From the UHGV virus genome UHGV-0289908: 64,000 bases of DNA, one strand, 5' to 3'. Shown here one piece after another: positions 30,121 through 62,837 of the stretch; the first letter of the stretch is position 1; every line of letters starts with the position of its first letter. The position numbers and the translations under genes were made by a program. The notes under the pieces are model-generated. The model was not told where the DNA came from. It saw nothing but the letters and a program-made list of their open reading frames with translations, and ran no database searches. This DNA is from a virus.

Positions 30121-30151
30121 TGTTGACGGTAAAATCAACATGTGATAATAT
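30121..30151 (+). promoter_or_regulatory. early sigma-A-type promoter with dyad (TGTTGAC-N-TCAACA) and extended -10
   Basis: aaaaactgTTGACGgtaaaatcaacatgTGaTAATAT. Confidence 0.65.
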
Positions 30152-30157
30152 ATAAGT

Positions 30158-30372
30158 GTGCTAAGGCACAGCATTCAGAATAGGCGTAGAAATTAAAGCC
30201 CGCATGTACTTTACGGGAAACACAAGACGTAAAGGTTGAAGTTAAAAACTCATAGCTAGGCTATGGCACTGGGGAATAATCGCCCCAGGTGAACTGATAG
30301 GCTGATAAGTTGGTTCAGATTGACGTTCTTTAGTTCGGGGGTTGAAATTCTGAAAAACGAAAAAAATTTTTT
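30158..30372 (+). ncRNA. candidate ~210-nt non-coding transcript (no ORF, structured, GTGTGCTAAGG 5' motif)
   Basis: Starts downstream of promoter at 30121-30151; contains GGGGaataatcgCCCC hairpin; ends at T-run 30373-30378 before next promoter; no RBS-associated ORF. Confidence 0.3.
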
Positions 30373-30380
30373 AAAAAAAC

Positions 30381-30411
30381 TGTTGACTTCAAAATCAACA
30401 GGTGATATACT
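30381..30411 (+). promoter_or_regulatory. early promoter with dyad TGTTGA-N8-TCAACA
   Basis: aaaaactgTTGACTtcaaaatcaacaggTGaTATACT. Confidence 0.6.
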
Positions 30412-30417
30412 TGATTT

Positions 30418-30781
30418 GTGTTGGTGAGTGTCCTAAGCAACTCGGAGGTCTAGGTGAAACCCCTCATTTGGGATATAGTGAATCGCACAGGGTCATTTCC
30501 CCGCGTGGTCACGGTTCTTTGAAAACATTATACAAAATCATAACGGGATAACCCGCAAGTCGCACGGGATAAGTAGCGAGACCCTAACATTAGAGTCGGA
30601 TGGGCGAAAAAAGAGGGGCGATAATAGAGAGTAGTATAGCATAGTGGATTGAGTGATTGAACAGGTGCTAAGGCGGGCGAACGTTTGAAGCCGTTAGAGA
30701 CTACCCGACCGCACACGTCACGAATACGGCAACATCCACAGGGACGACCAAAAAATCAAAAATCAAAAAGGACGTGATAAT
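30418..30781 (+). promoter_or_regulatory. ~360-nt GC-richer structured leader upstream of first early ORF (possible cis-regulatory RNA or additional sRNA)
   Basis: ~50% GC versus ~35% surrounding; repeated GGGATAA/GTGCTAAGG motifs; no ORF with RBS. Confidence 0.3.
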
Positions 30782-31537
30782 ATGGAAACAATCAAATTTA
30801 CTCGTAAAAAACAATTCTTAACATTTTTAAATGAAACGGTATCTACAAAATGTGACGAAATTCGACATCTAGAGTCTATTGTAGACAAAAAGTTTATTGA
30901 AACGGTTGGTTACCGATTAGGAATTGAGTACACTGAACAATACTCTTATGAGGCGATTTTCGCTGGATATGAGGGAGAAAAAGCAATCATCAATAATATC
31001 CAACGTTCTACCTTATGGGATATGTCATATCATGCCAATGGTTTAATGGCAAAAATGAATGAACAAATTGAATACTTGCAATTTGCTATTGAACACGGTA
31101 AAAAATTCGCAACTTATGGCGATTGTATTAAAGCATGGCATGAATTTAAAGATAACGGGACAATTCCGACAGAAATCGACACGGAAAAAGTCGAAAAAGC
31201 GGAATCATTTGATGACAAAACTTGTAAAAATCAAGTAGAATTTTTAAATGTGGTGCAAAAAGATTTACAAAACCACTCAAATCGACAAGCACGAAAAAAG
31301 CAACTTAACGAAGAAACGATAAAAAACGACACGGAAAATGTGGAAAATGTAGAAAAAACAGAAGAAACAACACCATGTAAAAATTGTAAAACATGTGCAA
31401 ATTGTTTCCACTGTGAGTTAGATGGGGAATATGGAGAATGTAAAAATAGGTCGTGCATAGTGAGGAGAAAAGATAGCTGTTCACTGTTCATGTATAAACT
31501 TGAGTCAAGCTCCCCAACGGGTCACACTAAAACGTAA
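30782..31537 (+). CDS. early protein with C-terminal Cys-rich (CxxCxxCxxC...C) domain
   Basis: 251 aa; TPCKNCKTCANCFHCELDGEYGECKNRSC. Confidence 0.6.
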   Translation: METIKFTRKKQFLTFLNETVSTKCDEIRHLESIVDKKFIETVGYRLGIEYTEQYSYEAIFAGYEGEKAIINNIQRSTLWDMSYHANGLMAKMNEQIEYLQFAIEHGKKFATYGDCIKAWHEFKDNGTIPTEIDTEKVEKAESFDDKTCKNQVEFLNVVQKDLQNHSNRQARKKQLNEETIKNDTENVENVEKTEETTPCKNCKTCANCFHCELDGEYGECKNRSCIVRRKDSCSLFMYKLESSSPTGHTKT

Positions 31538-31602
31538 AAAATTAGTGTGACCACTGGAGGGCTTGACCCTGTAAAAATCAAAAAAAATTGGAGGAAATTA
31601 AA

Positions 31603-31869
31603 ATGCAAAAATATTATGTTACTATGAACGATACTTTTATGAGTGGATGGGGTTGTGCTGATGGAAAAATTAACAAATTAATCTTTGAATGTGATTCATA
31701 CCATGAAGCGGAAATTGTAGCGGATAATGCTCGCTACCGTGGGGATATGAAATACATCAACATCAATCACAATAAACCACGATATAGCGGTACACGCTAT
31801 CTAGTGCAGGAAAAAACAAAAACGGACTACCCGAATTGGTATGAGAAAAATTATTTCTATAAACACTAA
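31603..31869 (+). CDS. small early protein
   Basis: GGAGG RBS 8 nt upstream of ATG; 88 aa. Confidence 0.55.
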   Translation: MQKYYVTMNDTFMSGWGCADGKINKLIFECDSYHEAEIVADNARYRGDMKYININHNKPRYSGTRYLVQEKTKTDYPNWYEKNYFYKH

Positions 31870-31986
31870 AAAATAGTCGTGTGGGCGACTTAAAAAAGGC
31901 ACTTAAGCCCACAGCGTCCACCCGTTGCGGGTGGGGTGTGCACTTGAAAAAAGTGTGTAAAATATGAATTTTATGGAGGTATTACA

Positions 31987-32208
31987 ATGACTTATATTGT
32001 GAAATTTATCAATGCGAAAAAAGAAAATCCATGCGGTAGCGAGTGGACACGAATTATTAAAGATTTAAAAACAATTCGAGGGGTTGAAAATCGCATTACA
32101 CGTGGGGTTAAACCTGTTGGAGCTGTCGGTTATAATATCTATCAAACGGCAAATATTTATGATGAAAAAAGTTATAGATTAATGCAAAAAGTTTATTTCA
32201 CTAATTAG
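31987..32208 (+). CDS. small early protein
   Basis: 73 aa; GGAGG RBS. Confidence 0.5.
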   Translation: MTYIVKFINAKKENPCGSEWTRIIKDLKTIRGVENRITRGVKPVGAVGYNIYQTANIYDEKSYRLMQKVYFTN

Positions 32209-61163: not shown

Positions 61164-61550
61164 ATGAATGAACAAGCAAAAGAGATTAAGATTTTACGAG
61201 GACAAATCCACATGGTTGATTTTGGGAACGTGGATGAATATAGTGGAAGTTTACAAAGAGGTAAGCGACCTGCAATCGTCATCACAAATGATACGGGATG
61301 TCGTTTTAGTCCCATTATTTCTGTAATCCCCCTAACAACCCAAAAGACGAAACGCAATCTTCCAACGCACTGTCATATTAAAAGAGATGAAACAAACAGA
61401 TTGTTAAAAGATTCAATAGCACTAACGGAACAGGTAGTAACAGTGAATCGTTTCCAAATTGGCGAACGAACAGGAAAACTATCTCCTAAAGATATGCAAC
61501 GAGTGGCGAACTGTTTAGGAGTGTCTGTGGGTTTATCCCTCGCAGTGTAG
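61164..61550 (+). CDS. MazF/PemK-family endoribonuclease toxin
   Basis: ILRGQIHMVDFGNVDEYSGSLQRGKRPAIVITNDTGCRFSPIISVIPLTTQ matches the PemK signature (G-ihhh-hDF-Gse-GkrRPalVis). Confidence 0.7.
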   Translation: MNEQAKEIKILRGQIHMVDFGNVDEYSGSLQRGKRPAIVITNDTGCRFSPIISVIPLTTQKTKRNLPTHCHIKRDETNRLLKDSIALTEQVVTVNRFQIGERTGKLSPKDMQRVANCLGVSVGLSLAV

Positions 61551-61653
61551 GTAAAACATTATAAAACATTTTATAATTTTCATACATACAAGTCATCAAA
61601 ATACCTACACCGTTTCCCACTTTAAAACTTTTTCGCTAAAATATTATAAAACA

Positions 61654-61684
61654 CGTTGACACCCCTGTCGAAAGATGATATTAT
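61654..61684 (+). promoter_or_regulatory. promoter preceded by the 29-bp element shared with 40552
   Basis: ttcgctaaaatattataaaacacgTTGACAcccctgtcgaaagaTGaTATTAT. Confidence 0.55.
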
Positions 61685-61727
61685 TAGGGTGTCAATTTTT
61701 TAGTTGGCGGAAAGAGGTGATAAAGAA

Positions 61728-61925
61728 ATGTGTGAACACGTGAAAGAGCGACTGCTAGAACTACAGCTACTGACAAAACGCAAGATGACGGTTCTCAAGT
61801 CTCTTGAATGGGCAATCAGTAATGGGGATAAGGGAATGTCAGATATGTGCGAACGAGAGCTCAAGATTATCCTTAAGAGGATTAGCACGATTAAAAAGGA
61901 ATTGGCACGATTAAAAAGAAATTAA
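61728..61925 (+). CDS. small coiled-coil protein
   Basis: 65 aa from MCEHV; AGAGGTGA RBS. Confidence 0.45.
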   Translation: MCEHVKERLLELQLLTKRKMTVLKSLEWAISNGDKGMSDMCERELKIILKRISTIKKELARLKRN

Positions 61926-61947
61926 CAAAATAAAGGGGGAAATCAAA

Positions 61948-62340
61948 ATGGAGAAACGTAAACATATTTCTGAAATGAAGTATGAGGAAAAGAATATGCT
62001 TCGCAAGATTGTAAAGCAAAACAAGTTTGTATTCAGTGACCACTGTATCAAACGAACCATGCAACGCAGGGTGATGGTAACAGACATCGTGAAAACAATC
62101 CGCAAGGGGAACATCATTGAATTCCATGTGGTTGGCGACAGCATAAGAGTGTTGTTGCGAGGGAAGCCGAATGGAAAAGACAAGTGCCCGTGTGTGGTAC
62201 TAAATGTGGGGACAAAAGAAGTGGTGACAGTATATCACAATTACAAATACAATCACCATCAATATTCAAAACGCACTCTGTATTCAAAAGATTTGGATAT
62301 ATGTTCATTAGTGCAACCATACTTAAAGAAATGCAATTAA
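61948..62340 (+). CDS. basic protein
   Basis: 130 aa; AAGGGGGA RBS. Confidence 0.55.
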   Translation: MEKRKHISEMKYEEKNMLRKIVKQNKFVFSDHCIKRTMQRRVMVTDIVKTIRKGNIIEFHVVGDSIRVLLRGKPNGKDKCPCVVLNVGTKEVVTVYHNYKYNHHQYSKRTLYSKDLDICSLVQPYLKKCN

Positions 62341-62377
62341 TACATACGAAAACAGGAAACCAAGGAGAAAAGTAATC

Positions 62378-62788
62378 ATGTGTAAATCAATCGAATTATT
62401 AAGTCAAATGAAATCATTAGGAGCAGAATTAGTTGGACAATTTGAGTATTTAAAAAAGGAACTCGGGAAGTGCGAGCGTATTCGCCAAGACATTCTTCAC
62501 AAAATTGAAGATATCGAAGATTTGAATGCGTCAGCTTCATACAATTATACGAAAGCACTCAACATCATTTCAAAGCACCGACGCAAGATTAAAAATGAAT
62601 TAGTAGCAATCGAACCCTACATGAAGGCTCTAGGCAATTATCACAAAACGGCAGGAGCGACATTAGGGAACATTGAAATTAGATATCAGACACTGTCAAG
62701 CAAAACAGGAGCAGACTATGAACCAAAAGTTTTAAATCTTAACGATAACATCTTGACGCAAGTTAAGGAAATTTGTGGAATCGAATAG
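62378..62788 (+). CDS. hypothetical protein
   Basis: 136 aa; AAGGAGAA RBS. Confidence 0.55.
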   Translation: MCKSIELLSQMKSLGAELVGQFEYLKKELGKCERIRQDILHKIEDIEDLNASASYNYTKALNIISKHRRKIKNELVAIEPYMKALGNYHKTAGATLGNIEIRYQTLSSKTGADYEPKVLNLNDNILTQVKEICGIE

Positions 62789-62806
62789 ATAAAATATTAT
62801 AAAATG

Positions 62807-62837
62807 TGTTGACAAAATCCTACAAAAAAGGTATAAT
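62807..62837 (+). promoter_or_regulatory. sigma-A promoter
   Basis: aaaaTGTGTTGACAaaatcctacaaaaaaggTATAAT. Confidence 0.6.

Follow-up and report, generated by a model that had tools for sequence, protein, structure and literature searches.

The 64,000-nucleotide (nt) stretch of virus genome UHGV-0289908 (hereafter the window) carries, between 30 and 57 kb, eleven plus-strand promoters that share an inverted repeat built on the -35 box. This dyad is read here, with modest confidence and from its sequence and position, as the probable shared operator of a set of immediate-early promoters. We infer that a protein binds the dyad and represses by that binding, and candidates for the binder were compared. 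The promoters were divided into two families: family A, which carries the -35 dyad, and family B, which carries a different repeated element, the AATATTATAAAAY box (B box).

Promoters were collected with a pattern blind to the spacer sequence (TTGAC, 15 nt, TGnTAnnnT, that is a 17-bp spacer between -35 and -10). Thirteen plus-strand sites were found from 30123 to 61656, compared with only two in the other 30 kb of that strand. With 61101, 62809, 57864 and 57931, which were added under slightly relaxed rules, about 16-17 near-consensus promoters were counted in 30121-62837, and the figure of at least 16 given in the original prediction, made earlier from the sequence alone, was thus a fair one. 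The sites are intergenic and have the sequence features of sigma-A-type extended -10 promoters: a TTGACA-like -35, a 17-bp spacer, TRTG or TGn and a TATAAT-like -10. The same prediction had treated them as a single family. This holds for the eleven family A members, all of which share the dyad; 40576, 61101, 61656 and 62809 form the separate family with the B box. Family A promoters are built as TG-TTGAC-N7/8-(T/G)CAAC(A), followed by TRTG and the extended -10. They are listed here, all on the plus strand, with the first base of the -35.

30121-30151, plus strand (-35 from 30123): family A promoter, perfect dyad TGTTGA-N8-TCAACA (30121-30140), TGTG, -10 TAATAT
30381-30411, plus strand (-35 from 30383): family A promoter, perfect dyad (30381-30400)
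33209-33239, plus strand (-35 from 33211): family A promoter, perfect dyad (33209-33228)
33881-33911, plus strand (-35 from 33883): family A promoter, dyad with one mismatch (TGTTGAC..ACAACA)
35405-35435, plus strand (-35 from 35407): family A promoter, inner-arm variant TTGAC-N6-GTCAA
38717-38747, plus strand (-35 from 38719): family A promoter, dyad with one mismatch
43755-43785, plus strand (-35 from 43757): family A promoter, CAAC at position 13, CG in place of the left TG
50258-50288, plus strand (-35 from 50260): family A promoter, TTGAC-N6-GTCAA
51070-51100, plus strand (-35 from 51072): family A promoter, TTGAC-N6-GTCAA
51955-51985, plus strand (-35 from 51957): family A promoter, right arm GCAAC, left flank CA, upstream of the gene for a 204-aa (amino acid) helix-turn-helix (HTH)-like protein
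56838-56868, plus strand (-35 from 56840): family A promoter of the Xer-like recombinase gene (TGTTGAC..GCAAC)

Positions were numbered from the first T of TTGAC (position 0). CAAY occupied positions 13-16 in 11/11 family A promoters, and TG stood directly 5' of the -35 in nine of the eleven. The information content at CAAC (2.2, 1.1, 1.1 and 1.3 bits) was equal to that of the -35, and the inter-arm positions 5-12 held 0.2-0.8 bits. That CAAC is conserved like the -35 while the bases between the arms vary supports the operator reading. When each position x was paired with 15-x, 63 of 91 pairs (69%) were complementary; thirteen other centres gave 10-41%. TTGA-N8-TCAA was found 11 times for 3.9 ± 2.1 expected; among spacings of 0 to 15, N8 alone was enriched. 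TGTTGA-N8-TCAACA, with two mismatches or fewer, was found 25 times for 6.6 ± 2.4 expected, a count reached in 0/100 shuffles. The dyad on the -35 is therefore real, as had been proposed, and its second half, for which an enrichment check had been suggested, is strongly enriched at a fixed position. TGTTGAC was the most over-represented intergenic 7-mer (11 observed, 0.54 expected), which suggests that the non-canonical TG 5' of the -35 is under selection. The consensus of the repeat is tGTTGAc-N6-gTCAACa (16-20 bp). Its left arm consists of the -35 hexamer and two 5' bases, and its right arm occupies spacer positions -23 to -18.

One promoter of this set had been placed at 33871 and is in fact at 33881. 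Two palindromes without a -10, described with the promoters as the same dyad (33843-33859 and 34627-34641), were also relocated. Spaced by N7 and N4, unlike the promoter dyad, they do not belong to its fixed-spacing element.

33853-33869, strand-neutral: perfect 17-bp palindrome TTGACATgatATGTCAA (TTGAC-N7-GTCAA), upstream of the 33883 promoter
34625-34638, strand-neutral: palindrome TTGAC-N4-GTCAA without a -10

A degenerate copy of the dyad, TGTTGCCAACGATATCAATA, lies at 56773-56792, 65 bp upstream of the dyad in the promoter of the Xer-like gene, and may be an auxiliary site.

A dyad followed on the minus strand by a T-run, the complement of the upstream A-tract, could also form a hairpin that would terminate antisense transcription entering the promoters. 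A terminator scan marked 30401-30380 on the minus strand, and three sites fold at -6 to -9 kcal/mol with T-rich tails. However, 8/11 sites are weak (-1.0 to -5.8 kcal/mol) and about half fall within the shuffled range. G-C pairs are few, the tails are inconsistent, and the region from 30 to 52 kb holds no minus-strand genes or promoters that would need termination. The terminator hairpin was rejected on folding energies as a general explanation of the dyad, and we regard it as very improbable.

Loci of relatives were collected around homologs of three proteins: the 412-aa protein encoded at 57996-59234, the first early protein and the 204-aa protein. Clade I consisted of the window with L004, L009, L016, L012, L013 and L011, and clade II of L005, L008, L014 and L015. 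The family A element was kept in these related metagenomic phages. In clade I, 39/49 promoters had CAAY at position 13 and none at 14; in clade II, 23/40 had it at position 14 and none at 13. Despite this difference of 1 bp in register, the -35/-10 spacing was 17 bp in both clades. A genome-wide, clade-specific shift of this kind is what co-evolution with a trans-acting factor would be expected to produce, and it argues for such a factor. It is hard to square with a fixed RNA polymerase contact or with inert descent of a promoter cassette. Those are the two forms of the view that the dyad is no operator: family A promoters would be copies of one ancestral cassette, or CAAC would be a polymerase or sigma contact favoured by the host. 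The family A members are indeed alike beyond the dyad (upstream A-tract, TRTG, TAATAT -10, ATAAGxGTAT start region), and the left arm is simply the -35. Against this view, the inter-arm and promoter-flanking positions are not conserved although CAAC is, and the sigma-A-type promoters of the late arm (6172, 10644, 26579) are without CAAC. Together with the register shift, these observations make the absence of an operator improbable.

About eleven intrinsically strong host sigma-A promoters would drive the immediate-early genes. If the dyad is an operator, one phage-encoded DNA-binding protein would sit on the -35 and the upstream part of the spacer, where it would block sigma region 4. The whole early promoter set would be shut together, in lysogeny or as an early shut-off. 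Negative regulation is to be expected of promoters so near to consensus. One of the genes served by family A promoters encodes an ArdA-like antirestriction protein, as would suit immediate-early promoters.

32292-32795: ArdA-like antirestriction protein (Pfam E = 4.5e-7)

The logic would be that of SPBRE and its repressor MrpR in SPbeta, but the site differs in sequence, keeps to one position and has two-fold symmetry. Three genes of the window bear on this comparison.

21586-24339, minus strand: YonO-like single-chain RNA polymerase, 917 aa; 27% identity over 515 aa, E = 6e-35, in BLASTP against SPbeta YonO
56908-57810, plus strand: Xer-type tyrosine recombinase, 300 aa, catalytic set intact (GLR, K, HDLRH, GH, Y)
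57996-59234, plus strand: MrpR/SroF-like protein, 412 aa, candidate master repressor, with a degenerate tyrosine-recombinase fold and about 110 extra N-terminal aa

Judged by domain matches and its predicted structure, the 412-aa protein is a bona fide MrpR/SroF-like protein with a catalytically degenerate tyrosine-recombinase fold. The Pfam domain MrpR_N_CB was matched by 13/13 aligned homologs (best E = 5e-10); the window's own protein scored 24.1 bits, below the 27-bit cut-off. Its AlphaFold2 (AF2) model had a predicted local distance difference test score (pLDDT) of 83.6. The best PDB matches of the model in Foldseek were MrpR 8a0a (E = 5e-7), the SroF-DNA complex 9rd5, YopR 8bj6/8bpz and SroF-Sar 9rgl, and MrpR, SroF and YopR structures ranked just above true recombinases in the list. 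In a profile alignment to the neighbouring Xer-like protein, Arg-I was replaced (GLR to GLT) by a Thr, T254, that hardly varies across the family. Reading the alignment by eye also gave S..R in place of HxxR and N at the His-III position, with an invariant C-terminal Y401. A similar pattern of lost catalytic residues was reported for MrpR (PMC10516654; bioRxiv 10.1101/2025.11.27.690993). A profile search of PDB sequences did not reach MrpR, and comparison with YopR by hhalign was not significant; the kinship with MrpR is therefore based on Pfam and fold comparison. Precomputed matches to PF22823 (MrpR_C_cat) were not reproduced in a Pfam rescan. The proposal that 57996-59234 encodes a repressor derived from a recombinase is thus upheld as far as the fold is concerned, and its link to the dyad is not. 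The 300-aa protein had been named beside it as recombinase-like. It is an intact Xer-type enzyme in which R, K, HxxR, H and Y are all present, not a degenerate repressor candidate, and it is probably a plasmid or phage multimer resolvase.

An SPBRE consensus, ATACAAAWAATATGTAT, was derived here from ten SPbeta target promoters identified by chromatin affinity precipitation sequencing (ChAP-seq). It is not present in the window (two matches at three mismatches, 1.75 expected), and the window dyad has 0 copies in SPbeta. The predicted likeness to SPbeta is therefore borne out by the YonO homolog and the MrpR/SroF-like protein, but not by the dyad, which has no sequence similarity to SPBRE. As in the SPBRE/MrpR system of SPbeta and phi3T, a short element is repeated in about ten intergenic promoter regions (11 dyads and 10 B boxes here) and overlaps the core promoter. 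A catalytically dead protein with a tyrosine-recombinase fold, with MrpR and SroF as best structural matches, is encoded along with a YonO-like late RNA polymerase. SPBRE itself contains a small dyad, ATACA-N7-TGTAT, with an A/T centre, embedded in several SPbeta promoters, and the family A element is likewise dyadic with an A/T-rich centre. The position of SPBRE is variable: it lies within the spacer at yonP, yorZ and yosX, just 5' of the ribosome-binding site at yopV and yonX, and 7 nt upstream of the -35 at aimR, which is repressed 5-fold by MrpR (PMC10516654; bioRxiv 10.1101/2025.11.27.690993). The window dyad, in contrast, is fixed to the -35 at one register. Unlike MrpR, the window protein has 412 aa with the extra N-terminal region, and its similarity is at the profile and fold level only. 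The window also differs in its second repeated box and probably in lifestyle, that of a plasmid prophage. The system is like SPBRE in concept, yet it is not SPBRE, and the lineage is undescribed.

Several observations weigh against the operator reading, or against the MrpR-like protein as its reader. The function of the -35 constrains the left arm anyway, and the independent evidence for the dyad consists of CAAC(A) and the 5' TG. MrpR is monomeric, and SroF is a monomer on DNA that contacts 24 of 26 bp in an asymmetric AT-rich box (PMC10516654; bioRxiv 10.1101/2025.11.27.690993). By analogy, a relative of these proteins would be expected as a monomer on an asymmetric AT-rich box of 24-26 bp; the family A site is two-fold symmetric, with arms of 6-7 bp and an A-rich centre; the B box is asymmetric and AT-rich but has just 12-13 bp. 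The promoter of the MrpR-like gene itself (57931-57960) lacks the dyad, yet has a B box. Pfam and PHROG scans of all small early open reading frames (ORFs) gave no DNA-binding domain; Serglycin matches in these scans were artefacts of added GS linkers. Finally, L007, the most distant relative (38% identity), has an MrpR-like gene, but 8/10 of its promoters are without the CAAC dyad. The locus shows a ATATTGATAAA-type box instead, which in some promoters is mirrored around the -35.

The dyad is also absent from family B promoters. The claim that one protein could occlude every early promoter was therefore too broad. Family B promoters were identified at the following sites, with the promoter of the MrpR-like gene given last.

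25500-25544, minus strand: family B promoter heading the operon with the YonO-like RNA polymerase gene
40560-40604, plus strand: family B promoter, AATATTATAAAAC box, 3 nt, TTGACT-17-TAATAT
61084-61129, plus strand: family B promoter of the PemK-like toxin gene, box AATACTATAAAAC
61640-61684, plus strand: family B promoter, TGTCGAA in the spacer, inside the inverted repeat TTGACACCCCT..AGGGTGTCAA with a T-run
62793-62837, plus strand: family B promoter, box followed by TTGACA-17-TATAAT
57904-57960, plus strand: B box (57904-57916), then the TTGATT-18-TATAAT promoter (57931-57960) of the MrpR-like gene

Ten B boxes were counted in the window for 1.3 expected, at 25532-25544(-), 27791-27803(-), 40560-40572, 56682-56694(-), 57904-57916, 61084-61096, 61555-61580, 61640-61652 and 62793-62805. 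Their distribution suggests a model with two regulators, in which the MrpR-like repressor would have its operator in the B box, a functional counterpart of SPBRE. A second regulator, a dimer, would then recognise the dyad; one of the HTH-like proteins of 126, 143 or 204 aa could play this part, as a lysogeny co-repressor or as an early shut-off factor. Across the window and nine related loci, 72 copies of the box were found, with sharp boundaries and in the same orientation as the genes. The box directly adjoins the MrpR-like gene on its upstream side in 9/10 lineages and in three different promoter contexts. The YonO-like operon has it at its promoter, just as P(yonP), which heads yonP-yonO, carries an SPBRE. 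In the family B promoters (40576, 61101, 61656, 62809 and, on the minus strand, 25528) it lies 3-4 nt upstream of the -35, much like SPBRE at PaimR. It also occurs in leaders just 5' of ribosome-binding sites, like SPBRE at yopV and yonX. Its asymmetry and AT-richness are those of the SroF box, and genes for HTH-like proteins are conserved just upstream of the Xer/MrpR-like pair. In position, then, the B box fits SPBRE better than the dyad does, which counts against tying the MrpR-like protein to the dyad; by analogy, the B box may be the real SPBRE analogue. On the other hand, it has only 12-13 bp compared with the 24-26 bp contacted by SroF, and the same 13-mer is retained though the MrpR-like proteins are only 52% identical. 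Its opposite strand reads as a perfect -10 (TATAAT), at some sites with a TCGACA -35, and its conservation could partly reflect divergent promoters. The fold matches of the HTH-like protein were not significant. Weighing these points, we consider two regulators a possible but somewhat unlikely arrangement. An orthologous promoter in L016 (3319) bears both elements, and dyad and B box are thus modular.

The spacers of family B promoters usually hold TGTCGAA or TGACAA. At 40590(-) and 61671(-), and in relatives, family B sites can be read as interdigitated divergent promoters, in which TCGACA, within the plus-strand spacer, is the minus-strand -35 and the B box (TATAAT) the -10. These could drive antisense RNAs, of which the PemK-like toxin gene, at its 3' end, might be one target. 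A whole family B promoter is enclosed by the inverted repeat TTGACACCCCT...AGGGTGTCAA with T6 (61656-61700), which has orthologs at L004 12206, L005 10582 and L008 13389. Its arms show compensatory C/T and G/A changes among relatives, so the repeat resembles a terminator of upstream transcription whose loop contains a promoter. The B box was also considered as a promoter for the YonO-like polymerase and rejected, since YonO uses a single late promoter.

The HTH-like proteins are encoded downstream of 50 kb.

50666-51046, plus strand: 126-aa protein, N-terminal HTH-like motif recognized by eye only, no family match; rival candidate binder
51490-51921, plus strand: 143-aa HTH-like protein, paralog of the 204-aa protein; rival candidate binder
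52320-52934, plus strand: 204-aa HTH-like protein; rival candidate binder

In relatives these three genes are kept just upstream of the Xer/MrpR-like pair. The AF2 model of the 204-aa protein contains a confident three-helix bundle (residues 60-112). A fold search with this model gave no significant match, and HTH domains dominated the list. The MrpR-like, Xer-like and HTH-like proteins all divide into the same four lineages, so the partner of the dyad cannot be picked by phylogeny. Provided that the dyad is an operator, the 412-aa MrpR-like protein is proposed tentatively as its binder. One of the 126-, 143- and 204-aa proteins is a less probable choice, and the remaining probability goes to another phage or host factor.

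The 412-aa protein might bind the dyad, described as 7-bp arms around a 6-bp spacer, as a dimer of a dead recombinase, with the N-terminal 110 aa or so mediating dimerisation. This is unlikely in our estimate. The arrangement resembles the core sites of tyrosine recombinases (dif, loxP, attP core), and active and inactive proteins with this fold are encoded nearby. Unlike those sites, the dyad has arms shorter than the usual 11-13 bp and is present in eleven directly oriented copies, which would be deleterious if they recombined; recombination is not indicated. If the dimer reading is true, the system would stand, in evolution, between a site-specific recombinase bound to its palindromic core site and repressors of the SroF/MrpR kind, which are monomers. 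The B box would then form a regulatory layer of its own, so that the promoters would be run by two codes, and host Spo0A might add a third input.

The operators of lambda CI/Cro, P22 c2 and 434 are also inverted repeats of about 16-20 bp over the -35, and the family A dyad would work in the same way, by promoter occlusion. Those operators are few and clustered at one or two promoters, whereas the 11 copies of the dyad are dispersed. The Pfam and PHROG scans of small early ORFs revealed no domain of CI/Cro/Xre type in the window.

A further possible input is Spo0A. This host regulator controls the early promoters and origins of phi29 through 0A boxes (TGTCGAA). The exact 7-mer TGTCGAA/TTCGACA was found 26 times in the window for 11.7 ± 3.7 expected. 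Of these copies, eight cluster beside iterons and DnaA boxes in 29089-30091, shortly before the first early promoters, and the cluster is kept in L012 and L013. An inverted pair is found at 30073/30085 and other copies include 40540 and 61666; in every clade, family B promoters again have the 7-mer in the spacer. The parallel with phi29 is the enrichment near a putative origin and the first early promoters and in family B spacers. The difference is that the boxes concern family B and the origin region, not family A. On sequence grounds, Spo0A input is plausible for family B and the origin-proximal region; the family A dyad is not explained by it. In the origin-like region (29220-29530), about ten iterons of the TACTAAAC type (AGTTTAnAAATACTAAAC) precede TTATCCACA motifs, which resemble DnaA boxes and occur in both orientations. 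LexA was rejected as a further regulator: its box, CGAAC-N4-GTTCG, was not enriched, and the 12-bp palindrome CGAACGTGTTCG in the control region upstream of the early promoters (29826-29837) has LexA-like half-sites spaced by N2, not N4.

The window spans the junction between the early and late arms of an undescribed SPbeta-like phage of large size (about 125-160 kb). The left 28 kb of the window is the late arm, on the minus strand, with genes for a portal protein (PHROG 2739), the large terminase, three tRNAs and the 917-aa YonO-like protein. The strand switches at about 28-30 kb, and a plus-strand arm of many small genes starts at about 30 kb. A late arm with a YonO-type RNA polymerase is thus opposed to an early arm with sigma-A promoters, as in SPbeta-like phages. 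From its sequence, the polymerase places the phage in the SPbeta supergroup in the broad sense; its ortholog in a relative matched Pfam RdRP, and in L013 the gene is split by an HNH/NUMOD4 endonuclease gene. The portal protein has at most 33-36% identity with those of large Bacillales siphoviruses. Nothing was retrieved from INPHARED phage records by megablast of 20 kb or by tblastn of the 412-aa protein, and protein profile and conserved DNA pattern searches of GTDB genomes and IMG/VR found no relatives. The relatives are known only from Logan and ENA metagenome assemblies, in contigs of up to 125-160 kb. A module at 56.9-61.6 kb is kept in all of them and consists of the genes for the Xer-type recombinase, the 412-aa protein and the two following proteins.

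59846-60805, minus strand: divergent ParM/ALP-like actin, syntenic in all relatives
61164-61550, plus strand: PemK/MazF-like toxin, syntenic in all relatives

Because ParM-like, PemK-like and Xer-type genes are carried, the phage is probably maintained as a plasmid prophage. No arbitrium module (AimR/AimP) and no serine integrase SprA were recognised in the 64-kb window, in which no search was aimed at them.

Several RNA features were also recorded. The late arm contains a 6A RNA motif (RF02925, 42.5 bits) at 16816-16866 (-) and the tRNA genes for Met, Thr and Ser at 17488-17564, 18617-18690 and 18737-18828 (-). Two early ORFs are separated by a Pistol ribozyme (Rfam RF02679) at 31875-31941 (+), which scored 60.8 bits for a gathering score of 34.5. 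Between the tandem promoters 30123/30383 and the first early gene, about 600 nt (30158-30780) are relatively G+C-rich and without an ORF of at least 50 aa. This segment may be a non-coding RNA or a structured leader. Transcripts from 30123/30383 would begin with short 5' hairpins such as GTGTGCtaagGCACA.

The family A promoters are a possible source of compact, repressible strong promoters for Firmicutes. Since each genome offers 11 natural variants of the putative operator and several genomes have diverged, they form a data set on how such proteins read DNA, which is also useful for asking if one or two regulators share the early promoters. Master repressors derived from recombinases, with dispersed repeated operators, are so far represented only by SPbeta and phi3T. 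If the operator reading holds, this lineage would extend the idea to distant, apparently plasmid-borne phages known from metagenomes only, with an operator that differs in sequence, is fused to the -35 and covaries in register with the clade.

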